In this document: piece by piece, positions 1 through 44,882 of the stretch
Layout: each line of letters opens with the position of its first letter
How positions within the stretch are numbered: the first letter of the stretch is position 1
IMG/VR virus record: IMGVR_UViG_2872678658_000005
Coordinates: 1-44,882 of that record
Source of the DNA: a virus
Taxonomy: Duplodnaviria; Heunggongvirae; Uroviricota; Caudoviricetes
Length of the DNA stretch: 44,882 nt
Reading direction: 5' to 3' (one strand)
Made by a program: the position numbers and the translations under genes
Notes under the pieces: generated by a model
Database searches by the model: none
What the model was told of the DNA's origin: nothing
The model's input: only the letters and a program-made list of their open reading frames with translations

Positions 1-1254
1 ATGCTGGAACAAATGGGCATTGCCGCGAAGCAAGCCTCTTATAAATTAGCGCAACTCTCCAGCCGCGAAAAAAATCGCGTGCTGGAAAAAATCGCCGATG
101 AACTGGAAGCACAAAGCGAAATCATCCTCAACGCTAACGCCCAGGATGTTGCTGACGCGCGTGCCAATGGCCTTAGCGAAGCGATGCTTGACCGTCTGGC
201 ACTGACGCCCGCACGGCTGAAAGGCATTGCCGACGATGTGCGCCAGGTGTGCAATCTCGCCGATCCGGTGGGGCGGGTAATCGATGGCGGCGTACTGGAC
301 AGTGGCCTGCGTCTGGAGCGTCGTCGCGTACCGCTGGGGGTTATTGGCGTGATTTATGAAGCGCGCCCGAACGTGACGGTTGATGTCGCTTCGCTGTGCC
401 TGAAAACAGGTAACGCAGTGATCCTGCGCGGCGGCAAAGAAACGTGTCGCACTAACGCGGCAACGGTGGCAGTGATTCAGGACGCCCTGAAATCCTGTGG
501 CTTACCGGCGGGTGCCGTGCAGGCGATTGATAATCCTGACCGTGCGCTGGTCAGTGAAATGCTGCGTATGGATAAATACATCGACATGCTGATCCCGCGC
601 GGCGGGGCTGGTTTGCATAAACTGTGCCGCGAACAGTCGACAATTCCGGTGATCACTGGTGGTATAGGCGTATGCCATATTTACGTTGATGAAAGCGCAG
701 AGATCGCTGAAGCATTAAAAGTGATCGTCAACGCGAAAACTCAGCGACCGAGCACATGTAATACGGTAGAAACGTTGCTGGTAAATAAAAACATCGCAGA
801 TAGCTTCCTGCCCGCATTAAGCAAGCAAATGGCGGAAAGTGGCGTGACGTTACACGCAGATGCTGCTGCGCTGGCGCAGTTGCAGGCAGGCCCCGCGAAG
901 GTGGTGGCTGTTAAAGCCGAAGAGTATGACGATGAGTTCCTGTCATTAGACTTGAACGTCAAAATTGTCAGCGATCTTGACGATGCTATCGCCCATATTC
1001 GTGAACACGGCACGCAACACTCCGATGCGATCCTGACCCGCGATATGCGCAACGCCCAGCGTTTTGTTAATGAAGTAGATTCATCCGCTGTTTACGTTAA
1101 CGCCTCTACGCGTTTTACCGACGGCGGCCAGTTTGGACTGGGCGCGGAAGTGGCGGTAAGCACACAAAAACTCCACGCGCGTGGCCCGATGGGCCTGGAA
1201 GCACTGACCACTTACAAGTGGATCGGCATCGGTGATTACACCATTCGTGCGTAA
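1..1254 (+). CDS. proA: gamma-glutamyl phosphate reductase (complete, 417 aa)
   Basis: Full-length ORF from the first base of the window; translation recognised as E. coli ProA (aldehyde dehydrogenase fold); TAA stop at 1252-1254. Confidence 0.95.
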
Positions 1255-1368: not shown

Positions 1369-1444
1369 GCCGATATAGCTCAGTTGGTAGAGCAGCGCAT
1401 TCGTAATGCGAAGGTCGTAGGTTCGACTCCTATTATCGGCACCA
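1369..1444 (+). tRNA. thrW: tRNA-Thr (anticodon CGU), phage attachment target
   Basis: 76-nt sequence GCCGATATAGCTCAGTTGGTAGAGCAGCGCATTCGTAATGCG...TATCGGCACCA with a 7-bp acceptor stem and CCA end; CGT anticodon in the anticodon loop; sits immediately downstream of proA as in E. coli. Confidence 0.9.
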
Positions 1445-1461
1445 TTTAAATCAATAAGTTA
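1399..1461 (+). repeat. attL core (3' 46 nt of thrW plus about 17 nt downstream)
   Basis: Exact 63-bp direct repeat of the segment at about 43625-43687 (ATTCGTAATGCGAAGGTCGTAGGTTCGACTCCTATTATCGGCACCATTTAAATCAATAAGTTA). Confidence 0.8.
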
Positions 1462-2622
1462 CACATCATTAGTACCTTCCTTATTTTTTGACTGGGACAA
1501 ATTTGGGACCGATGGGTTCAGGATCGAGTCTATTTGCCGTGCGTGTTCGGTAAGGTGATTAGGTGCAAGGTGAGCATATCGACGAACCATTTCGATAGAC
1601 TCCCAGCCTCCCATTTCCTGTAACACTGACAACGGGACTCCGGCTTGAACCAGCCAACTTGCCCAGGTGTGTCTCAAGTCGTGAAATCTGAAATCATCAA
1701 TACCAGCCCGTCTCAGCGCCGCTTTCCAGGCTGTGTTTGCGTCATACCGCATCTTCCTTACTGTTGGCGCTTTCGTTCCGTCTGGTTTGGTACAGCTTTC
1801 CTTGTACACAAATACCCAACGGTGATGATTCCCGATTTGTTTTTTCAAAACGCGACATGCAGTATCATTCAGCGCAACGCCAATTGCGCGGTTTGATTTA
1901 CTCTCTTCCGGGTTTATCCATGCCACCCGGCGCTGCATGTCTATTTGTTGCCATTCAAGGTTGATGATGTTCGAGCGTCTTAAGCCTGTTGCCAGTGCAA
2001 ATTCAACAACAGACTTTAATGGCTCCGGACATTCATCAATCAGCCTTTGTGCTTCATGGGGCTCCAGCCAGCGGATCCGTTTATTCTTTGGTTGAGGCAC
2101 TTTAATAATTGGTGCCTTATCCAGCATTTTCCATTCACGCTCTGCGGCTCTTAGTAGGGCCTTTATAAATGAAAGATGCGTAGCCTTCGTTGCAACGGAC
2201 GCTGGTTTTGGCGTGTATTCTGGAACAGGTTTCCCTTTTTTTCTGCATGCTTCTGCCCTGAGTCTCCAGTTTTCCTCATGACGCCGGTTCGTCATTTTCT
2301 GCATTGCTGAATAAATTTTTGATTCAGTAATGTCTCTTAGTTGCATTCCTGCGAAATGTTGAAGCCAGAATCCGATCCGGCTTTTGTCATCGTCCAGTGA
2401 TTTTTTATGTGCTTTCTCTTCAAGCCACCTGACACACGCTTCCTCGAACGTTATATCAGGTATTTCACCAAGTTTGCTGACCCGCCATGCTTCAGCCTTT
2501 AGCTTGTCATGGAGTTCTGTCGCCTGCCTTTTGTCCTTTGTTCCAAGAGACTGTTTAAATCTTTTACCGTTCGGCAATGTGAAACTGGCGTACCATATTT
2601 CACCTCTGCGGAAGAGTGACAT
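1459..2622 (-). CDS. int: tyrosine integrase (P22-type, 387 aa)
   Basis: ORF translation [24 protein letters not shown]... with C-terminal HDLRHTWAS...RYAHLAP catalytic region; adjacent to attL at the tRNA-Thr site that P22-like integrases use. Confidence 0.9.
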
Positions 2623-3516: not shown

Positions 3517-4043
3517 TTGCGTAACTCCGATAACTCGTTAAAGCGTTCCATAAACATCCCGTAGGCATGGCCCGGTGCCAGTGGAATCACGTTGAACATC
3601 TCTGTTGCCGGGATACCTTCCAGTACAGGCCAGAAAGAGCCATCATCAAGCCCGAGATCGCGGCGTTCGGTTGCCAGCATGATGAGATCGGCATATTTCA
3701 CGGGCGTACTCATAACTGGGGGTAATCCGTATTTCTCACGGATTACGGAGTCTATTTTTTCTTCCATTTGTTTATAGTCAGGAAGAAGGCGTTTCAGTGG
3801 TGCGGGAATGTCCTGGCAATACGCTTCTGTTGCATCATGCATTAACGCTTCAAAAGCAAATTTCTGCGGCACCAGCTGGCTGCAAAGAACCGCATGTTGG
3901 GCGACGCTGTAGAAGTGCGAAAGATGACCGGCAAAGCGACAGATATTTGAAAGGGAAACCGCGATATCGTTAATATCGATGTCGTCTTTATTTATCCTGT
4001 CATAATAAAAATGCTTCCCGGAAAAAGTTTTAATAAATGACAT
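3507..4043 (-). CDS. HD-domain phosphohydrolase (YfdR-like, 178 aa)
   Basis: Start taken at MSFIKTF (GGAG 6 nt upstream); H...HD metal-binding motif (SHFYSVAQHAV...LMHDATEAY). Confidence 0.75.
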   Translation of the reverse strand: MSFIKTFSGKHFYYDRINKDDIDINDIAVSLSNICRFAGHLSHFYSVAQHAVLCSQLVPQKFAFEALMHDATEAYCQDIPAPLKRLLPDYKQMEEKIDSVIREKYGLPPVMSTPVKYADLIMLATERRDLGLDDGSFWPVLEGIPATEMFNVIPLAPGHAYGMFMERFNELSELRKCA

Positions 4044-4170
4044 TTTGTTCTCCACGTATATGCGCTGCACCGCGCTGAATTCTGGTAAAAAGAATCCCTC
4101 ACCATCCGGCGATTATTGAGTAAATTACGTTTCCATAAATGCCCCCGCAGGGGCATTTGCAGTAATGAAA

Positions 4171-4995
4171 TCAGGCGGTGAAAGTACCAATAAAGGTTTC
4201 TACTTTGCTGTCCTTGAATTTCTCAACAAGCAGATCACGAAATTCGTTAGCCATTTCTTCCTGCACCGCCTCCAGCTGAATAATGCGCAGAACCAGTACC
4301 GGACGATCGCCAGTGATAATGCTGAGGCGTAATTTAAACGGACGTTCTTTCAGACCTTCAAACGGAATGCATTTAAATTCAAATGCCACTGGCATAATGT
4401 CTTTGGTCTTCGCTTCGACAGACTCCATCAGGGAGCGTTTGCCGCTGAAGTCATTATCTTCAAAATCAGCGGTCTGGTTTGCTTCAATCGTGATTTTACG
4501 GACCGCCGCAGCCGCTTTTGTTGCCTGAATGGTGTCACCATTAGCATCAAAGCCCACAAGGTAGTCGGCCCAGTCTTCAATCCATTCTGCCAGTGATTTC
4601 TGGGAGTTACGCTCGCCATTAACAGACAACAGAGCAGAGAACGGTGCTGTCTTTTTCAGTTTGAGAGTGGCGGTGTTATCTGCGTGACCTGGTTCATCAA
4701 TAGTACCCAGGTTAAGCACACTGACGGCACGCATATTATCAGCATCGATAAAGCAGCGGGTGCCTTCATCTGCAAGATCTTTAGAATAACGGGTAAAGTC
4801 ATCGATGCTGGCAGTGGAAAGCGCACCACGGAAACGGAAGCGATTTAAATTAAATTTTTCCAGATCATGAATGCGGAAATTCTCAGGCAATGCCACAGCA
4901 TCGGCACCAATCTTACTGATAATTTCATTAACACCCTGAGCAGAAATAAGGGCATGGATTTGATTAATTGCGGTTGCGTCTAAGTTCTGAGACAT
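4171..4995 (-). CDS. DUF2303 protein (YfdQ-like, 274 aa)
   Basis: Translation [28 protein letters not shown]...; GAGGA Shine-Dalgarno upstream of the ATG. Confidence 0.75.
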
Positions 4996-5060
4996 AATAA
5001 GTCCTCACTATATAAAGATATTCAGTGATGAGATAAATAATCAGTTAATTAAGAACGATA

Positions 5061-5423
5061 TTAATGACCTGCTGCGCGGAGTTTTCCGTCAGGTTCACCG
5101 GCAAGAGTCAGTAATTGTCCCTGGTCTTCCTGCAGAATAGTCAGGCGACCACCGCGATTGACATACATCGGCGTTTCGGTGGTGTCTTCTTCGGAAATTT
5201 TCCCGCGGTTAGTCGGGCGAACATATGAGAGTTTGTGTTTGATTTTCACACGGTTCTCATCAAACGGTTCGATTTCCAGGTTGAGCGAGACCTTACCTTT
5301 GGTTTTCGTGTTCATCACACCGGAAGCGACTTCACTGAGAACTGCGCCGATTTTGGTTTCAAATACGCCGCCGTCCAGCTCCCCGATAAATGCCTGCACA
5401 TCAGTACTGCGTTCGCTAGCCAT
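5061..5423 (-). CDS. hypothetical early protein (YfdP-like, about 120 aa)
   Basis: Start placed at MASERSTDVQAFIGELDGG (GGGGAG upstream); the longer 197-aa reading has a low-complexity, non-protein-like N-terminus. Confidence 0.55.
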   Translation of the reverse strand: MASERSTDVQAFIGELDGGVFETKIGAVLSEVASGVMNTKTKGKVSLNLEIEPFDENRVKIKHKLSYVRPTNRGKISEEDTTETPMYVNRGGRLTILQEDQGQLLTLAGEPDGKLRAAGH

Positions 5424-6031
5424 TTTGCTGCTCCCCATCATATCGACCCTGCAAGGTCGGTTGGTTTCTCCACAAAACAGAGAAGAACACCTGCGGTGAC
5501 TGCCGCCCGGATGGATTGGGTTATGAGCCCGTCGTCCGGTGATGCTCTTCTCTGTTTTGTAAAAAGAGCGGTACCAGCCGGAAGCAAGGGTACAAACTGG
5601 TACCGCCAAAGCAGTGGCTGTTGTGGTGGGGTTGTCACTCAGGCGTATGGTCAACCTGACAATCCGGTGTCCTCAACGGGGAAAGAGTAACCCCGCCATA
5701 CTTACCGCCGCGCCATTTCGCGGATTACCACAACGCTGAGAGCACTTAGCCAGTTACGGCACCACACTTTGTCGCGGCTCCATAAATGCCCTCATCGTTG
5801 CACCCTGGTCTCTTCCCAGGCGTCAAACCGAATCGCCACGCTGGTTAGGCGTCTTATCAGCATCATCATTGACTTGCACATTCCGGCTACCTGGTTTGTT
5901 TGCCCGAGCAAGGAGTGGATTGTCCCCTTTAACGTCCCCAGACCGCTAACGACGCATGTGCCATACGCCGTGTTACAACCAAATTTTGTTAGTACCTTGT
6001 TTGTTTGTCTGGAAAGAAAGATAAAATGAAG

Positions 6032-6070
6032 TTGCGCATTATGCAAGTGTTTTTGTTGCGAGATATGCAA
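6032..6070. promoter_or_regulatory. putative OL-like operator pair (TTGCG-N5-xGCAA)
   Basis: Two 15-bp sites, TTGCGCATTATGCAA and TTGCGAGATATGCAA, each with inverted TTGC/GCAA half-sites, downstream of cI; a third copy lies in the cI-cro intergenic region. Confidence 0.35.
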
Positions 6071-6079
6071 TTTAAAGGG

Positions 6080-6105
6080 TAATGAAAAGCCACCTTTGGG
6101 TGGCT
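6080..6105 (-). terminator. intrinsic terminator after cI
   Basis: 7-bp stem AGCCACC/GGTGGCT with TTTG loop; on the minus strand it is followed by TTTTCATT, 20 nt after the cI stop. Confidence 0.5.
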
Positions 6106-6125
6106 AATTGATGAGGAGGTAAGGG

Positions 6126-6818
6126 TTAATTGTGTCGCTTAAGGGTTTGTGACTGGCTGATTAAGACCTTTCCAAAGACCATAAACCGGTGTTCATTTTC
6201 GCTGGTAATTCCCCATTCACGGTAAATCTGGTTATCAGAAATCACCAGTAGTTTGTCAGGTATCATTTGCAGTCGTTTGACATAAATTTTATCATCAAAA
6301 CCAAAGACATAGATACCATCTCCATCAAACTGATTGATACTGACATCAACGAAGATGAGATCTCCTGGCTCAATGGTTGGACACATACTGTCCCCACGAA
6401 CGTTGATAACTTTAATGTGATTGGCTGGCCGTCCGCCAAACATCGATACAGCATTATCAGTTCTGTATTCAATGGCATGAATCACATCAATGACATCACC
6501 GCCCTGGATAAGGCCATTTCCCGCACTGGCACTGACATCCAGCATTTCAATACGGAATACATCCTTCACCTGCGCAACATCCTCACTAATACTGTTTTTA
6601 CATACAGTATTACTTTTGAAGTCTGAGGTAAAGAGATCAGCAATATCAACACCTAAGCTCCTGGCAATATTACTCAGGGCTTGTTCAGTGAATTGTTTCT
6701 GCTTACCTGTTTCCAGGCGTGAGATATTCGCCGCATCCACTCCTATTGCTTCAGCGAGATCGGCGATTTTCATGTTCTTCGCCTGGCGAAGTTGTCTGAC
6801 TCGGTTTCCTATGTTCAT
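6126..6818 (-). CDS. CI-like repressor (HTH plus S24 LexA-like peptidase domain, 230 aa)
   Basis: N-terminal XRE-type HTH (KIADLAEAIGVDAANISRLETGK); C-terminal domain with the GDSM serine motif and a downstream lysine typical of autocleaving repressors; divergent from cro. Confidence 0.85.
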   Translation of the reverse strand: MNIGNRVRQLRQAKNMKIADLAEAIGVDAANISRLETGKQKQFTEQALSNIARSLGVDIADLFTSDFKSNTVCKNSISEDVAQVKDVFRIEMLDVSASAGNGLIQGGDVIDVIHAIEYRTDNAVSMFGGRPANHIKVINVRGDSMCPTIEPGDLIFVDVSINQFDGDGIYVFGFDDKIYVKRLQMIPDKLLVISDNQIYREWGITSENEHRFMVFGKVLISQSQTLKRHN

Positions 6819-6838
6819 GCGTTTATTACATTTCTTTA

Positions 6839-6900
6839 TTGCGCGTTAAGCAAATCAACTTGCGCAAAATATTTGCGTGAAATAATATGCTCATCACGCA
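6839..6900. promoter_or_regulatory. OR / PRM-PR region
   Basis: 97-bp divergent intergenic region with operator-like TTGCGCGTTAAGCAA, palindromic TTGCGCAA, and a candidate PR (-35 TTGCGC, 17-bp spacer, -10 TAATAT) ahead of the cro GGAGG RBS. Confidence 0.4.
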
Positions 6901-6915
6901 ATATGTGGAGGTCAT

Positions 6916-7176
6916 ATGCAATCACCATTACGGAATGTGCGTAAGGCGCACGGATTTACTTTGCAGCATGTTGCTGCTGGCGTTCAGGTCAATCCAGCGA
7001 CGCTGAGTCGTATTGAAAGACTGGAACAAATTCCATCTATCGATCTTGCAGAACGTCTGGCCAATTTTTTTAAGGGTGAAATCAGCGAAATGCAGATTCT
7101 TTATCCGGCACGTTTTCAATCTAGCCAAAACCAGAATGGGTTTAAACCACAGGAACAGGAGGTAAGCCGTGGGTAA
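6916..7176 (+). CDS. Cro-like HTH regulator (86 aa)
   Basis: Translation with XRE-type HTH (HGFTLQHVAAGVQVNPATLSRIER); GGAGG RBS; divergent from the repressor. Confidence 0.75.
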   Translation: MQSPLRNVRKAHGFTLQHVAAGVQVNPATLSRIERLEQIPSIDLAERLANFFKGEISEMQILYPARFQSSQNQNGFKPQEQEVSRG

Positions 7177-7720
7177 TCATCACTGGAAAGTGGAAAAACA
7201 GCCTGAGTGGTACGTGAAAGCTGTCAGAAAAACTATCGCGGCGTTGCCGGGGGGTTACGCTGAAGCTGCTGAGTGGCTGGATGTAACAGAGAACGCTTTA
7301 TTCAACCGCCTTCGTGCAGATGGCGATCAGATTTTCCCGCTGGGATGGGCAATGATTTTACAGCGTGCTGCTGGCACTCACTACATTGCGGATGCTGTCG
7401 CACAGTCTGCTGGTGGGGTGTTTGTATCGCTTCCTGAAATTGAGGAAGTAGAGAACGCAGATATAAACCAGCGCCTGCTGGAAGTCATCGAACAGATCGG
7501 GAGTTACTCAAAGCAGATTCGTTCGGCAATCGAAGATGGGGTAGTGGAGCCACACGAGCAGACAGCAATTAATGATGAATTGTATCTGTCAATTTCGAAG
7601 CTCCAGGAGCATGCGGCACTGGTCTACAAAATTTTCTGCGCTCCAGAAAAGAGTGACGCCCGCGAGTGTGCAGCTCCGGGCGTCGTGGCGTTTTGTGTCT
7701 GTGGAGAAACTAACGCATGA
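7169..7720 (+). CDS. CII-like / YdaT-family regulatory protein (183 aa)
   Basis: GTG start 8 nt after a strong AGGAGG; occupies the cII position after cro; family assignment is from recalled similarity, not a search. Confidence 0.55.
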   Translation: MGNHHWKVEKQPEWYVKAVRKTIAALPGGYAEAAEWLDVTENALFNRLRADGDQIFPLGWAMILQRAAGTHYIADAVAQSAGGVFVSLPEIEEVENADINQRLLEVIEQIGSYSKQIRSAIEDGVVEPHEQTAINDELYLSISKLQEHAALVYKIFCAPEKSDARECAAPGVVAFCVCGETNA

Positions 7721-8322
7721 ACAGTTTAACGGCAAATAACCGTTTGTCGCAACAGCTGGTGGTCAGTGTCGCTGCACACCTGTTGTTACGGCATGAATGC
7801 AGATTACCAAATCACCTGGCTGTAAGTAACCACAGAGAACTTTACCTGACTGTGGGGGGCGAGTTGTGCAGGAACTTAACCGCTGGTTTCGTGACGGAAG
7901 AGGACTTTATGTTCATGTTATTCGTTGGGAGCCAGAAACACAGCGCGTTATCTATCTTCGCAAAGACTACCCGCATGAGTGCTTTAGTCCTTTGTGGAAA
8001 TTCAGGCGTGATTTTGTTGAGTGTGAAGGACCACCAGCACATTGATTCTGCCATTCCGGGACGTTACACTGTTCAGGCACCTTATAAAGCGGGTGCCGGG
8101 CGTGGAAACCCGGAATTCACCAAAGCGCACAACCGCGCTCTTGCGGTTTTTTTGTGTCATGAGCAGCATTACGCCCAAATTATGGTGGGGCGTGCAGGGC
8201 CAACTTCGGTTGGGCCGGGTTCTTTGGTGACCGGTATTTCCACCCCTGTACGTCTCACCACCAATAAGGTCGTGGAAAGCCTTGGTGGTGAGTTATTAAA
8301 AATCACCAAAGAGGCTGCCATC
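7717..8322 (+). other. ambiguous 600-bp segment: open in frame with the downstream Rha gene, but contains terminator-like and hairpin structures
   Basis: ATG at 7717 overlaps the stop of the CII-like gene (ATGA) and the frame stays open for about 200 codons into Rha; the translation is not recognisable and a hairpin plus T-run lies inside at about 8131-8153. Confidence 0.25.
8131..8153 (+). terminator. candidate intrinsic terminator (tR1-like)
   Basis: AACCGC-GCTCTT-GCGGTT hairpin followed by TTTTTTT. Confidence 0.4.
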
Positions 8323-8868
8323 ATGGCTACGATCCCAACCCTCACTCAACCTGAAATTGCCATCGTTGATGGTCAGGCTGTTACTTCATCCCTGGCTGTT
8401 GCCAACTTCTTCTCCAAACGTCATGACGATGTACTGAAAAAGATCCGCACGCTTGAATGTTCCGCATCATTCACTGCCCGCAATTTTTCGGTGAGTGATT
8501 ACACCGATTGCACAGGCCGCAAACTACCTTGCTATCAAATAACCCGCGACGGCTTTGCGTTTCTTGCTATGGGTTTCACGGGTAAACGTGCTGCCCAGTT
8601 CAAAGAGGCATACATCAATGCCTTTAACCAGATGGAGAAACAGCTTTCAAAGCCCGCTGTACCGAGCGACGTTGCACATAACGCCAGCGTTCTCTGTTCC
8701 TACATTTCATCAATTCATCAGGTCTGGCTGCAGCAGCTTTATCCTATGTTGGCAAAAGCCGAATCTCCGCTGGCTGTTAGCTTATATGACTATATTAATG
8801 ATGCTTCGGCGCTGGCCTGCCTCATAAATTTGTCGCTGAACCCTTCAGAGGTAAGGGGGCGCAAATGA
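8323..8868 (+). CDS. Rha-family phage regulatory protein (181 aa)
   Basis: Internal ATG giving MATIPTLTQPEIAIVDGQAVTSSLAVANFFSKRHDDVLKKIR...ITRDGFAFLAMGFTGKRAAQFKEAYINAF, the canonical N-terminal pRha domain; AAGAGG upstream. Confidence 0.75.
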   Translation: MATIPTLTQPEIAIVDGQAVTSSLAVANFFSKRHDDVLKKIRTLECSASFTARNFSVSDYTDCTGRKLPCYQITRDGFAFLAMGFTGKRAAQFKEAYINAFNQMEKQLSKPAVPSDVAHNASVLCSYISSIHQVWLQQLYPMLAKAESPLAVSLYDYINDASALACLINLSLNPSEVRGRK

Positions 8869-9089
8869 TCCGGAATATTTTCAAACGTTTTACCAATCAG
8901 ACTTTCCGTTGTCCTCGTCCGGGTCAGTGGTACACCACGCCTGCAGGGCATGTTCTACGTGTTAGCCTGGTTGACCGTGAATGTCAGAAGGTGATTTGTG
9001 AACCGCTGGGCCGTAATTACCGCGTCAGTATGCCGCTTATAGCCTTTCGCTCCGGAAAAAACATGAAGCATCTCGGAGGTGCAGCATGA
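8865..9089 (+). CDS. hypothetical protein (74 aa)
   Basis: ORF whose start overlaps the Rha stop (ATGA); no recognisable domain. Confidence 0.5.
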   Translation: MIRNIFKRFTNQTFRCPRPGQWYTTPAGHVLRVSLVDRECQKVICEPLGRNYRVSMPLIAFRSGKNMKHLGGAA

Positions 9090-40016: not shown

Positions 40017-40304
40017 ATGGATATAAGCCCCTTACTTCATGCACTTTGTGCTGTGGCTGCGCAGGTACTGGTTGGTCTTTTTACCGGAAACTGGGCTTAC
40101 GGTGCGATAGCTGGTTGTACGTTCTTCATCGCTCGTGAACATACCCAGGCAGAATATCGCTGGATTGAAATGTTCGGGCATGGCAAGCGAATGAATATGC
40201 CGTGGTGGGGCGGTTTTGATCCGCGTGCTTGGGATGTGGCAAGCCTGATGGATTTTGCTGTGCCGGTGGTGGCGTGTCTGCTGGTCTGGCTGTTGATCCG
40301 TTAA
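40017..40304 (+). CDS. small inner-membrane protein (95 aa)
   Basis: Two predicted TM segments; the 3' 120 bp has an about 85% identical paralogous fragment outside attR at about 43862-43984. Confidence 0.55.
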   Translation: MDISPLLHALCAVAAQVLVGLFTGNWAYGAIAGCTFFIAREHTQAEYRWIEMFGHGKRMNMPWWGGFDPRAWDVASLMDFAVPVVACLLVWLLIR

Positions 40305-40348: not shown

Positions 40349-40499
40349 GGCTGGTGAACTTCCGATAGTGCAAGTATTGAATGATTGCCAGTCACAGCGG
40401 ATTGTACTTAGGTAATATGACGGTTCAAGGCGTTTAAACTGAAACCATCCACATATCAGTCTCTTCAAACATTTCCTAAATCGTTCGGCTTATCTGTTC

Positions 40500-40969
40500 T
40501 TTCTCACGTTTGCTGACGTCAGTGCTGATTGCCGGCAGTGTCATCATCGGTTTTACACGATACCCTTTGCGTTGAACGAGTCGTACTACTGTAACAGCGC
40601 GTCGGTGAAGCTGCTCATCCCGACACAGGACAGTCGGGATATCATTGCAGTAGCAACGGGGAGTCTGGATGCAATATGGAAAGACGGACACCGATATCAG
40701 AAAGCCGGGGTAATGCTGGGGGACTTCTTCAGTCAGAGCATGCCCTAACCTATTCGACGATAACGCGCTGGGTCCTGGGAGCGAAAAGTTAATGAGCGTG
40801 CTGGAGCACCTCAACGCAAAAGACGGGAAGGAAACACTCTGTTTCGCTGGGCAGGGCATTCAGCAGCAGTGGCAGATGAAACGCGAGATATTTTCGCACC
40901 GGTATACAACTAGATTTTCTGGCATTTTAGGTGGTTAGATAGATATTTATGCTCTACGCAATGAATATG
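40500..40969 (+). pseudogene. 5'-truncated, frameshifted umuC-like (Y-family polymerase) fragment
   Basis: Across two or three frames the translation reads ...SVKLLIPTQDSRDIIAVATGSLDAIWKDGHRYQKAGVMLGDFFSQ / NLFDDNALGPGSEKLMSVLEHLNAKDGKETLCFAGQGIQQQWQMKREIFSHRYTTR..., matching the UmuC C-terminal region; no start codon or N-terminal polymerase domain. Confidence 0.6.
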
Positions 40970-40975
40970 AGAGAA

Positions 40976-41641
40976 TTAATTGTCTAAGCTGGTATAATAT
41001 GAATAAAGGCTTTTTCCCATTATTTTCTCTAAATCCTTTTTGTTTCTAAAGAAAATGTTTGAGATATGCTGATGATAATACTTTATAATGATTCTCATCA
41101 GCGCCGATACTACCTCATGAAGTTTTTTCACCATTTTATGCTGTGTTGAATTACAATCTCCCTCCATAAGTGATATAAATGTTGATGTAACATTTAGGTT
41201 CGCTTGGGGGGAGGAGTGAACATAATAACAGGCGTTAATATAGACATTATGTAAATAAGACCAGCCTTCATCGACTTGTTGGGCTTTTAAGAAGTCAAAG
41301 TCTCTACGACGTACAGTTTGGTCAAAATCCCCACCATTGTAGTTCTTATTGAGGCTTATTCTGGCCACATGCTCCACCATTGAGCGGAAGTTCAGTTGGA
41401 GATACCGTTCTCTTTTTTTTATAATGGCAATTAAGGAGTTTAAGGTATCATATATAAAACCTTTTATATAAGAAGAGTGATTTAGATTAGGATTGTGACT
41501 TAAAATTGTATTACAAAGACTTATTTGCCTAAATATTGATACTGATTTGTTTATTTCATCAGTGGTTCTGAGGTGCTTTTGCACCTCCGCTCTAAAATAA
41601 TTTACATCTCTTCCAATGTTGAAGGGATCCTGCGTGAGCAT
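40976..41641 (-). CDS. hypothetical protein (221 aa), third gene of the AT-rich operon
   Basis: Start overlaps the stop of the upstream gene (TAATG); no domain recognised; contains RSMVEH and RIIIKYYH (Rx4-6H-like) stretches. Confidence 0.6.
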   Translation of the reverse strand: MLTQDPFNIGRDVNYFRAEVQKHLRTTDEINKSVSIFRQISLCNTILSHNPNLNHSSYIKGFIYDTLNSLIAIIKKRERYLQLNFRSMVEHVARISLNKNYNGGDFDQTVRRRDFDFLKAQQVDEGWSYLHNVYINACYYVHSSPQANLNVTSTFISLMEGDCNSTQHKMVKKLHEVVSALMRIIIKYYHQHISNIFFRNKKDLEKIMGKSLYSYYTSLDN

Positions 41642-42039
41642 TATTCTTCTTCCTTTTTATTTGCATTAATCCAAATATTTAAATTCCTTATAGCATGCTT
41701 GCTTTTAGATGTGGATTTTTGGCTTGTTTTATTTGCATCATTAAAAATAATGTCTAATGTGTTAATGTTGTTTAAGAAATGCGTATAAGCCATCTTTATG
41801 TCATTCTCACTTAATTCATTAATATGTTTGCAAATTTTAGCGCACATCAAAGTTCTTGACCGTACAGCATAATTCAAAAAAGATATTTTGAAGGTTTTGT
41901 TAATAAATTTACTAACATCAAAATTTGATCTAAAAACCTCTTTTGAAAGAATCAACATAATTACCAAGCCTAAGAAGTTTTCTTTGGTCATGGGCATATT
42001 GTTAGCTTTATTGATCGCTTTAATTAATTGTTTATTCAT
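41641..42039 (-). CDS. hypothetical protein (132 aa), second gene of the AT-rich operon
   Basis: Overlaps the ParA-like gene stop by 8 nt; hydrophobic segment FLGLVIMLILS; Lys-rich C-terminus. Confidence 0.6.
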   Translation of the reverse strand: MNKQLIKAINKANNMPMTKENFLGLVIMLILSKEVFRSNFDVSKFINKTFKISFLNYAVRSRTLMCAKICKHINELSENDIKMAYTHFLNNINTLDIIFNDANKTSQKSTSKSKHAIRNLNIWINANKKEEE

Positions 42040-42877
42040 TTGTGTTACCTTCCAAGTGAGCCACTCTGTTAATAAATTCGTTACAGATCTTTTCTATATC
42101 TTGGCGTGACTTTGAATAACAAGAAGGAATATTTCCTTGATAACCTACCATTAAATCACGCACGTAGGTTAATTGATTTTCAAAGAAATAAAAATTTGTA
42201 AATTGAGTATGGTTTTCGAATTGTTCTTTAATTTCCCTTGTTTTATTGGTCATTTCAGCATCAGTGTTTGTATAAATGTAACCGACTTGCTTGATTTCTT
42301 TCTCATGATGTGTGCGCATATTTCTTATAACGCTATTTAAACTGCTTGCTCCAAGCACCGAGTAGTGATCAATTTTAACCGGAGTAAGATAATAATCAGA
42401 AGCAAGGAGTGCGGTATCTGTAAATAATGATATTGTTGGGGGGCTATCGATAAAGATATAGTCGTAACTTTCTTTTAAGTCATTTTCGGTGATGAATTTA
42501 CGCAACATTTTTATTCTAATACCCTCTTGGTTAGTATCAAAGATAATGTTTATATCACCTAAGATAATATCAAGATTGTCTGAAACTTTAGTAATGACCT
42601 GTTCTGGTGTCACTTTCTTTTCATCTTCCATTAATGAATTTGGAAGCTCAAAAATCTTTCGAATGGTTTGATTATTAGGGCGAAGGGCAGTCATATATTC
42701 TTCTACTCGATCATAATGCCCCATTAAGGACTGAGTGGCATTAAATTGAGGATCAATATCGATAACTAGAACCTTGTGCCCCATATGGTTGGCTAAAAAC
42801 TCAGCAATCCCAACGCATAAAGTTGTTTTACCAACCCCACCTTTCATATTGATAAAACTAATTACTGGTGCAGTCAT
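42032..42877 (-). CDS. ParA/MinD-family P-loop ATPase (281 aa)
   Basis: Deviant Walker A KGGVGKTT near the N-terminus, DIDPQ and IFIDSPP motifs; AAGGA RBS; palindromic operator-like sites (GTGAA-N5-TTCAC, ATGC-N5-GCAT) in its upstream region. Confidence 0.8.
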   Translation of the reverse strand: MTAPVISFINMKGGVGKTTLCVGIAEFLANHMGHKVLVIDIDPQFNATQSLMGHYDRVEEYMTALRPNNQTIRKIFELPNSLMEDEKKVTPEQVITKVSDNLDIILGDINIIFDTNQEGIRIKMLRKFITENDLKESYDYIFIDSPPTISLFTDTALLASDYYLTPVKIDHYSVLGASSLNSVIRNMRTHHEKEIKQVGYIYTNTDAEMTNKTREIKEQFENHTQFTNFYFFENQLTYVRDLMVGYQGNIPSCYSKSRQDIEKICNEFINRVAHLEGNTNE

Positions 42878-43424
42878 TTTTTCATCCTTAATTATGTAGT
42901 GTGAAATAGATTCACTATGCTGAAAGCATTTTTTAGCTTAATTTTTATACTGCGCGTTGACTTATCACCCTATCATATATGATTTTTAGGTGTTGCATAG
43001 ACTGGTTTTATATCAGGGGCTTAGGTTGTATGTGGCGTCACAGAATCACTAATCATTGAACTTTGTACATGTAACGGTCAGGTTAAATAATATATAATGG
43101 GTTGTTAAGTTGGCTCTCTGATTCCTGATGCCCCAAGGACGCGCGTCATTGCGTGCCAGATTAACTTTTCGGCGGGCACAGTGCTATCGGCAATTATTTC
43201 CTCAGCCTCTTTCCCGCATAGGTCTTGGCGCATCCATTTTCTTGCTATGAAATCTCCAGCCGGTCAGACTGAAAGTATAGAAGAGAATATGCGAATCGCT
43301 GTTCCGGTGTTTCTGGGAGAGCTTATGTCGGAGTAATTCCCCGGTAATTGAATCTCTTTTGCTCGCTCATAACAGACATTCACTACAGTTATGGTAGAAA
43401 GTATGTATGCTGATTGGGGAAAGT

Positions 43425-43559
43425 GTGAAAGAAAAGAAGACTGCTGCGCTGTTTGTCGTCACGTTTATCTTCATTGGCTATGCAAGTCATAATACAAGGT
43501 GGGACAAAACTGAGACACATAAGGCCTCACAATGGCTTGCAAGGCTTTACATGTTTTGA
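43425..43559 (+). CDS. possible small hydrophobic peptide (44 aa)
   Basis: GTG-initiated ORF with GGGGA upstream and a hydrophobic core; below the ORF-track size cutoff; coordinates counted by eye. Confidence 0.2.
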   Translation: MKEKKTAALFVVTFIFIGYASHNTRWDKTETHKASQWLARLYMF

Positions 43560-43624
43560 TGTGGTGGGACGTGTGAGCACAGTGTTGATGGGGTAATACT
43601 TTGAATTAGAAGCGGATTCTTATA

Positions 43625-43687
43625 ATTCGTAATGCGAAGGTCGTAGGTTCGACTCCTATTATCGGCACCATTTAAATCAATAAGTTA
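43625..43687 (+). repeat. attR core (partial thrW 3' copy)
   Basis: Second copy of the 63-bp repeat; the tRNA 5' half is absent, so the intact thrW is the attL copy. Confidence 0.8.
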
Positions 43688-43815
43688 TCTCACATTTAAG
43701 TAAACTACGTTCTCCTCTTGTGCCTTTGATTTTGCTCGCGTGCGCGGTGAAATGCCTGACTGAAAGGTGAGCATATCGACGAACCATTTCGAGAGTTTCC
43801 CATCTGCTCATTTTT
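43688..43815 (-). pseudogene. integrase 3'-end remnant outside attR
   Basis: AAGGTGAGCATATCGACGAACCATTTCGAGAG matches the int 3' end at about 1565-1605 (35 of 39 nt); reads ...[13 protein letters not shown]... on the minus strand with no upstream gene body. Confidence 0.55.
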
Positions 43816-43861
43816 AAGTGCAAGCAGGAAAACACCGGACTAAACCAATCAGCTGTTCGAA

Positions 43862-43984
43862 AATGGCAAGCGGATTAATATGCCATGGCGGGGCAGCTTT
43901 GAGCCGCACGCATGGGGTGTGGCAAGCCTGATGGATTTTGCTGTGCCTGTGGTGGCGTGTTTGCTGGTTTGGCTGTTGGTTAAA
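43862..43984 (+). pseudogene. 3' fragment paralogous to the 40017-40304 membrane protein gene
   Basis: About 85% identical to 40180-40304 (...NMPWRGSFEPHAWGVASLMDFAVPVVACLLVWLL...); no 5' part. Confidence 0.5.
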
Positions 43985-44267
43985 CGCGAAAGTCATAATG
44001 CCAGGGGAATACCGCAGGGTGTTCAGGTTTTGCATAAAAAAGCCCACCATTAAGGTGGGCAAAAGGAATGATTTATATTCTCTGAGAGAAACATTACATT
44101 TCTCCTTGTCACTTCTAACATAAAAATATGGAGAAATAATGGAGCTTATATTAATTGGCGATTAGGTAACCATGTGGTTATACAAAACAATACAGTTCTT
44201 TACATTTGCCTTGTTTTATGAATACTCCTGAAGAGGTGTACAACATAATTAAACAAACAGGGTAAAT

Positions 44268-44882
44268 ATGAATATATTTGAACAAACTCCACCGAACCGC
44301 AGACGTTATGGTCTTGCTGCATTCATTGGGCTGATTGCTGGCGTTGTTTCCGCATTTGTGAAGTGGGGGGCTGAAGTTCCATTGCCGCCACGTAGCCCGG
44401 TGGATATGTTTAATGCAGCGTGTGGTCCGGAATCATTAATCAGGGCTGCTGGGCAAATTGATTGCTCCCGTAATTTTCTCAATCCTCCGTATATTTTTCT
44501 TCGAGACTGGCTGGGGCTGACAGATCCCAATGCGGCTGTTTATACCTTTGCCGGGCATGTCTTTAACTGGGTTGGTGTTACGCACATTATCTTTTCGATA
44601 GTGTTTGCTGTCGGTTATTGTGTGGTCGCTGAAGTATTTCCAAAAATTAAACTCTGGCAGGGCTTACTGGCAGGTGCTTTAGCCCAACTTTTTGTTCATA
44701 TGATTTCATTCCCTCTCATGGGACTGACGCCACCTCTGTTTGATCTCCCGTGGTATGAGAATGTTTCTGAAATTTTTGGACATTTAGTCTGGTTCTGGTC
44801 CATTGAAATTATTCGCAGAGATTTACGAAACAGAATTACTCATGAGCCAGACCCTGAGATCCCTTTAGGCTCAAACAGATAA
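44268..44882 (+). CDS. yagU: inner membrane protein YagU (DUF1440, complete, 204 aa)
   Basis: Translation [34 protein letters not shown]... recognised as E. coli YagU; TAA stop at the last base of the window. Confidence 0.9.

Follow-up and report, generated by a model that had tools for sequence, protein, structure and literature searches.

A probable deletion scar of an ancient lambdoid prophage between the thrW att core and yagU of Escherichia coli

The segment at positions 43688–43986 of the window, by which is meant the whole stretch of 44,882 nucleotides analyzed here, is in all probability (roughly 85%) a scar in two pieces, left by deletion in an ancient lambdoid prophage that formerly resided in the tRNA gene thrW. 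Its pieces are the 3′ end of an integrase gene and the 3′ end of a small membrane-protein gene, and the scar is without a function of its own. The order of features in the window is proA, thrW, a lambdoid prophage of ∼42 kb, and yagU, with which the conserved chromosomal genes resume on the right of the thrW hotspot (Table 1); RefSeq strain ampC_0069 is an exact match to the window. The att core includes 46 nt of the thrW 3′ end, and in genomes with an unoccupied site the equivalent of the attR core forms the 3′ end of a complete thrW gene. The analysis of the scar, which adjoins the attR core on its outer side, places the actual right-hand end of the resident prophage at 43687.

The right arm of the resident prophage (40476–43560) encodes a ParA-like ATPase (42032–42877) and two proteins of unknown function, and the same interval contains gene fragments annotated in RefSeq as DinI, DUF4113/UmuC-like, and SOS-response-associated peptidase. 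The presence of these fragments among its genes indicates that the right arm is itself a patchwork of cargo and debris.

Table 1. Positions of the features discussed in the text, in window coordinates unless another locus is named.
Feature	Positions	Strand	Basis
proA	1..1254		
thrW, tRNA-Thr(CGU), integration target	1369..1444	+	ARAGORN
attL core of resident prophage, 63 bp	1399..1461		63/63 identical to 43625–43687
Resident integrase, 387 aa, P22-type; 3′ end abuts attL	1459..2622	−	Pfam Phage_integrase, E=3.5e-48
29-nt exact direct repeat, copy 1, in resident int; encodes ..EMVRRYAHL..	1567..1595		Longest exact shared run
Intact membrane-protein gene of resident prophage, 95 aa, phrog_1443	40017..40304	+	PHROGs, E=1e-57
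attR core of resident prophage; presumably once the attL/attB core adjoining the scar	43625..43687		Self-BLAST
Integrase stub, last ∼60 codons and 3′ tail, mEp213/HK75/HK542-type	43688..43854	−	Phage BLAST and multiple alignment
29-nt exact direct repeat, copy 2, in integrase stub	43764..43792		Longest exact shared run
Membrane-gene stub, codons ∼52–95 (last ∼44) of phrog_1443 gene	43855..43986	+	BLAST, alignment
Relic ORF, 57 aa, through membrane-gene stub	43880..44053	+	ORF comparison
Unassigned 38 bp; phage/chromosome junction somewhere inside	43987..44024		No phage match
Segment upstream of yagU, ancestral in Escherichia, not present in pao-type E. coli	44025..44102		Outgroup match
Intrinsic-terminator-like hairpin, GCCCACC-TTAAT-GGTGGGC then T6	44036..44060	−	Folding
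yagU upstream region with promoter-like site	44103..44267		Kept in 4882/5426 genomes
yagU, DUF1440 inner-membrane protein	44268..44882	+	RefSeq annotation
K-12 mini-scar-like stretch	3771..3826 of L093 (MG1655); equivalents in L010 and L091		Alignment

Anatomy of the scar

Homology between the scar and the resident prophage was examined by self-BLASTN of 43560–44270 against the whole window with a word size of 7. Beyond the self match, the att core, and the two stub matches, every alignment had E≥0.002. The first stub match pairs 43761–43813 with 1564–1616 in the resident integrase gene (45/53 identical, 84.9%, E=1.6e-11) and includes an exact run of 29 nt; the second pairs 43854–43978 with 40171–40295 (108/125 identical, 86.4%, E=3.9e-38) within the resident gene that is the paralogue of the second piece and specifies a hydrophobic product. 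Both similarities had been reported in the initial annotation, as an integrase 3′ end just to the right of attR followed by a fragment of the 3′ end of the membrane-protein gene. Both withstand formal alignment and only their coordinates needed refinement. Chance resemblance has practically no probability in view of the E values and of the phage integrases and phage membrane genes that match independently.

In a collection of phage genomes, 43689–43854 matches the int 3′ ends of mEp213, mEp043, and HK542 at 85.5% identity in two pieces, with further int matches in HK75, mEpX2, and SfX. The int homology begins at 43688, directly after the core, in the orientation expected at attL, and the spacing and orientation of stub and core match those at 1462 and those of the attP–int region of mEp213, in which an annotated thrW-type attP immediately adjoins the int 3′ end. 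Multiple alignment indicates that the stub is a mosaic relative to sequenced phages and that its tail, 43688–43760, is of mEp213/HK75 type, unlike the tail of the resident integrase. The earlier description of the lost element as a relative of the resident one is thus correct as regards one conserved stretch of int, but outside this stretch the old integrase, which belongs to the mEp213/HK75 type, is not close to the resident enzyme. The stub carries a 29-bp internal deletion after 43724 and a frameshift, such that its minus-strand translation reads C-terminal integrase residues and then runs out of frame. RefSeq treats it as a pseudogene, labeled “integrase; frameshifted; incomplete; missing N-terminus” in ampC_0069 and many other strains, and no NCBIfam model matches it; the C-terminal codons that are left fall well short of the complete catalytic domain (∼170 aa) of a functional Phage_integrase protein.

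The membrane-gene stub matches the 3′ part of a gene of phage PhiR49_2 at 88.0% identity over 133 nt. In intact prophages the phrog_1443 gene is situated past the side tail fibre genes and before attR. Its 95-aa product in the resident prophage is matched by no Pfam or NCBIfam model, and the PHROGs family is of unknown function. An open reading frame runs through the transmembrane segment of the stub in all four of the scars examined, and its B2-type version is annotated as a 61-aa “hypothetical protein” that has another start owing to a 5-bp indel; since phrog_34165, a 46-aa PHROGs family, matches the same C-terminal part, the stub might be read as a domesticated small gene for a single-pass membrane peptide of 57–61 aa under selection in the B2/F lineages. 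This reading is very improbable. The 5-bp indel gives the F-type and B2-type frames different N-termini as well as different starts, eight of the twelve substitutions between them are non-synonymous and four synonymous, no promoter-like site is found upstream on the plus strand in 43500–44198, and the product belongs to no Pfam or NCBIfam family. The substitutions in this frame are as expected without selection, and decay looks neutral at the sequence level; the truncations, the 29-bp deletion, the frameshift, and the 5-bp indel are all signs of decay in the scar.

The int and membrane-gene homologies abut at 43854/43855 (...CAGCT/GTTCG...). The gap of about 50 bp that had been placed between the two pieces does not exist, as the 40 bp separating them are also integrase-derived and the int homology continues to 43854, where it meets the membrane-gene stub. 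The 3′ ends of both stubs face outward and their interiors are fused, which is the permuted order of an integrated prophage and not the order of the phage genome, where the membrane gene and int converge on attP from either side. The positions homologous to the two stubs are ∼38.6 kb apart in the resident prophage, in agreement with the initial estimate of about 38 kb. Both pieces are phage-derived and are oriented as the attL-proximal and attR-proximal ends of a prophage would be, in support of the proposal that an element integrated at thrW had lost its interior. This interior, ∼38–40 kb by analogy with the resident prophage, would have been lost through illegitimate recombination, as suggested by a microhomology at the junction of only 1 nt, a single T.

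That the integrase and membrane-gene stubs derive from one and the same prophage is the simpler reading, though not a provable one. Alternatively, each could come from a different element of a tandem pair at thrW, a single deletion having fused the int gene of the left-hand element to the membrane gene of its right-hand neighbor. Elements are commonly found in tandem at thrW (islands beside the scar in B2 genomes, a prophage beside the scar, CP4-6 beside an int remnant in K-12), and the two gene families assort independently, the integrase type being that of mEp213/HK75 and the membrane gene that of PhiR49_2 and ev207/lambda-like phages. Nevertheless, a second element is not required, as one element with an internal deletion explains the arrangement more simply, and no sequence of an intervening att site survives; a two-element origin is accordingly judged unlikely.

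On its right side the phage-derived scar appears to end at 43986. The adjoining 38 bp (43987–44024) are 84% identical between F-type and B2-type scars and have weak similarity to an outgroup locus described below (L013). A phage origin of 43975–44110 was considered and dropped, as a distant BLAST search of this interval against 50,697 phage records returned hairpin-sized chance matches only, all with E≥0.1. The distal att repeat that would bound the remnant, i.e., the old attR, was sought by Smith-Waterman alignment of the 63-bp core to both strands of 43979–44267. None was found: the best alignment scores 9, compared with a mean of 10.1 for shuffled sequences, and the third att core that was suspected to lie before yagU is thus absent from this interval. 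The lack of a distal repeat points to loss of the right end through further deletion. One or more such deletions would have taken the attR-proximal end together with the old attR and some of the chromosome, and may have extended to the ancestral hairpin-containing segment upstream of yagU.

Distribution and age of the scar

The distribution of the scar was surveyed in 5426 complete E. coli genomes. The segment 43975–44110 is present in 1300 of these and at least 80% of 43688–44267 in 1297; carriers include IAI39, an ST648 strain, ST131, and NRG 857C. The phylogroup labels F and B2 used here are assigned on the basis of a few named strains. K-12, B, and O157 genomes lack the scar and have yagP/paoDCBA to the left of yagU instead, such that K-12, BLR(DE3), and O157:H7 share only 44103–44882 with the window. 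The scar is accessory and not core chromosome, the alternative that had been considered at the outset. The species-wide totals (pao-side paoA/yagP sequence in 3613 genomes, scar in 1300, shared yagU upstream sequence in 4882) fit two alternative states to the left of yagU, scar or pao, which makes this position useful as a lineage marker.

Unoccupied sites were sought with a synthetic junction in which 1260–1461 is joined directly to 43688–43987. In 82 genomes an unoccupied thrW gene is contiguous with the scar; identity is 100% in no fewer than 38 of these, among which are FDAARGOS_497 and a strain named ST648. The RefSeq gene order at such sites (e.g., L001) is proA, tRNA-Thr, integrase pseudogene, yagU, with no prophage. 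The actual prophage/scar junction (43200–43900) is found in two genomes only, ampC_0069 and strain 3150; different prophages adjoin the same scar elsewhere, for example in LR-62-2. In B2 genomes the left-hand neighbor of the scar is the attR core of an unrelated thrW island; examples are a restriction-modification/AbiE island, which has an att core of its own, and a vat island, the core of which is clipped by IS1.

These observations bear on two proposals. The first, contained in the initial annotation, is that a second element was once integrated in tandem with the resident prophage. A tandem array in the sense of two co-resident prophages is not found, as the scar is already decayed in the 82 genomes in which thrW is unoccupied and the junction with the resident prophage is confined to the two genomes named above. 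The scar predates the resident prophage by far, and its decayed state in both the unoccupied-site and the B2 genomes indicates that the two elements were in all likelihood never neighbors in intact form. The second is that the segment is owned by the resident prophage, for instance as a duplicated int fragment next to attP, which would account for its contiguity with attR and its resemblance to two prophage genes. This possibility is negligible given the 82 scar-bearing genomes in which no prophage occupies thrW, an identity to the resident genes of only ∼85%, and the finding that where the same right arm is joined to a pao-type flank no scar is present past a short diverged stretch.

The scar is 93–95% identical between the window and two B2 genomes, and the yagU coding sequence is 94.3% identical. 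Equal divergence of the scar and of yagU fits co-inheritance of the scar with the flanking chromosome, and the distribution shows that the B2/F part of the species has the scar as a fixed feature, inherited vertically with yagU. The favored reading, a deletion scar of an ancient thrW prophage, also accommodates the later occupation of the site: the old integration regenerated an intact thrW gene on its left and hence the site stayed usable. The 42-kb prophage would have inserted much later, whereupon the old attL core would have become its attR.

Two further observations concern the chromosome around the scar. The YagU protein accession of the window genome is the one found in K-12, B, and O157 genomes, and the yagU region here is closer to the K-12 type, with 96.9% identity over 44103–44882 vs. 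94.3% identity of the coding sequence to B2 (L002/L003). That the scar is common with B2 but the yagU allele is nearer to the K-12 type hints at recombination near the hotspot. In CE-O153H30 (L006, ∼3930–4000) the scar is present with no detectable thrW gene, and ARAGORN finds no tRNA there. A deletion has removed ∼70 bp of upstream sequence along with the 5′ half of the gene; the core-like 3′ part remains and carries two substitutions that look paired, from GTAGG..CCTAT to GGAGG..CCTCT.

The hairpin and the ancestral segment upstream of yagU

The initial annotation had ended the remnant with a hairpin followed by a minus-strand run of T. The structure is real but does not belong to the remnant, being instead part of an ancestral segment upstream of yagU. 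It comprises a stem of 7 bp (6 of them G-C) with a 5-nt loop at 44042–44060 and T6 at 44036–44041 on the minus strand, folds with −15.2 kcal/mol (z=−3.1), and is a predicted Rho-independent terminator. A scan of species-representative genomes having YagU yielded two informative Escherichia loci outside E. coli, in neither of which is thrW within reach. In one of them, from a divergent Escherichia (L013), 44025–44102 including the hairpin has an 86% match at 9759–9835, just upstream of yagU; in the other, from E. albertii (L014), the same block is recognizable with a weaker stem. The hairpin segment is ancestral chromosome, since it is found beside yagU at both loci without phage sequence. An origin as the terminator of the old phage was considered and is ruled out by these copies, which lack phage neighbors.

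No terminator-like site follows the resident prophage's own phrog_1443 gene, and among the loci examined from other genera none has an equivalent hairpin at the Escherichia yagU position. A search of 43500–44400 against Rfam 15 gave no match at the gathering score (best 20–22 bits, against the 41–56 needed). Between F-type and B2-type genomes the hairpin block is identical at 78/78 positions, whereas both flanks differ by ∼5%.

The divergent genome from which L013 derives is labeled E. coli SCPM-O-B-8794 and is a separate GTDB species representative. Immediately upstream of its hairpin segment, at 3889–9113, is a flagellar cluster with homologues of FliE, FliF, FliG, FliH, and FliI, at the position that in E. 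coli is taken by thrW islands or the pao operon.

The block also contains a minus-strand open reading frame of 14 codons, MFLSENINHSFCPP, that extends from an ATG at 44094–44092 to a TAA at 44052–44050. It is preceded by AAGGAG at 44107–44102, and its stop codon lies in the hairpin loop. The counterpart in L013 is MFLSEIINHSFCPP, with mostly synonymous changes, and the E. albertii copy leaves this frame after ..INHS owing to a 1-nt deletion. Genomes of the pao type (K-12-like) lack the 78-bp block, their homology to the window starting exactly at 44103. The block could be a small gene or a leader, or the reading frame could be a coincidence.

Proposed recombination at the scar and comparison with other thrW elements

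The scars of B2 genomes are collinear with that of the window from 43765 to the right. Left of this point, as far as the att core, they have a different sequence, 29 bp longer, and this left end is identical at 129/136 positions to the resident int 3′ end (1463–1598). The switch point between the B2-type and window sequences falls inside the 29-nt repeat, over which the two integrase types do not differ. A predicted recombinant across this repeat agrees with the B2 scar at 477/501 positions with 8 gap columns, whereas for the window's own scar the agreement is 423/467 with 47 gap columns. A plausible history is that a P22-type prophage once lay beside the scar in an ancestor of B2 and was lost by homologous recombination between its int gene and the stub, which would have left its int tail on the old scar. 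Replacement of the tail in the reverse direction is equally possible. RecA-type recombination between such repeats, which would delete thrW prophages and exchange the tail of the stub, is inferred from the B2-type scar because it has exactly the structure expected.

Both copies of the 29-nt repeat, the substrate of such an event, are present in the window now. The comparison of F-type and B2-type scars suggests that recombination between the stub and an incoming int gene would remove the prophage and rewrite the stub. An extension of this idea is that the stub is not inert, in that it would permit prophage deletion without an excisionase and have its tail overwritten each time, with the B2 scar as a fossil of the process, and that the 78-bp block is a small gene lost in K-12-type lineages. 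The combined proposal is possible but doubtful.

A comparison with K-12 and its CP4-6 region had been suggested in the initial annotation. The scar of the window is absent there. In K-12, CP4-6 lies between thrW and ptwF, and in K-12-type genomes the ptwF core is followed by ∼55 nt of a diverged mEp213-type int tail, which is unannotated, and then by the yagP region. A similar, if shorter, remnant is thus present to the right of ptwF, and short integrase stubs to the right of a thrW-derived core are the rule at this locus. In light of the K-12-type remnant the integrase stub could predate the B2/F clade, or stubs of this kind could form more than once.

The scar is an ordinary prophage remnant, the integrase half of which was already annotated as a pseudogene. 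Its analysis identifies an integrase pseudogene and a small “hypothetical protein” in more than 1000 RefSeq genomes as the debris of an older phage. It also provides a tidy case, unsurprising to specialists, of a tRNA hotspot that gathers stubs as it is re-used.

Other occupants of the locus are well known, including vat islands located between proA and yagU, next to thrW (PMC6592367), and GI-thrW of ST131 (PMC4134206). The scar resembles the cryptic remnants found at tRNA hotspots, such as CP4-6 of K-12 and the GI-thrW/vat island of ExPEC, in occupying the same locus from proA–thrW to yagU. It also shares with CP4-6-like remnants a truncated tyrosine-integrase gene set against an att core, at a site re-used repeatedly. 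Unlike CP4-6 and GI-thrW, it measures only ∼300 bp, contains no intact gene, has no attR of its own, and lies outside the right att core of the current thrW occupant. Its integrase stub aligns with the last ∼196 nt of the thrW-specific int genes of P22, SfX, HK75, and mEp213 lambdoid phages and is as far from the thrW-derived core as int is in the attP–int region of mEp213; it differs from full thrW integrases in retaining ∼60 of ∼386 codons and cannot encode a recombinase. The membrane-gene stub, in turn, resembles the phrog_1443 genes that follow the side tail fibre genes in PhiR49_2 (88% over 133 nt), ev207, and other lambdoid phages, and differs from the full gene in having lost the N-terminal 51 codons together with two of the three hydrophobic segments.
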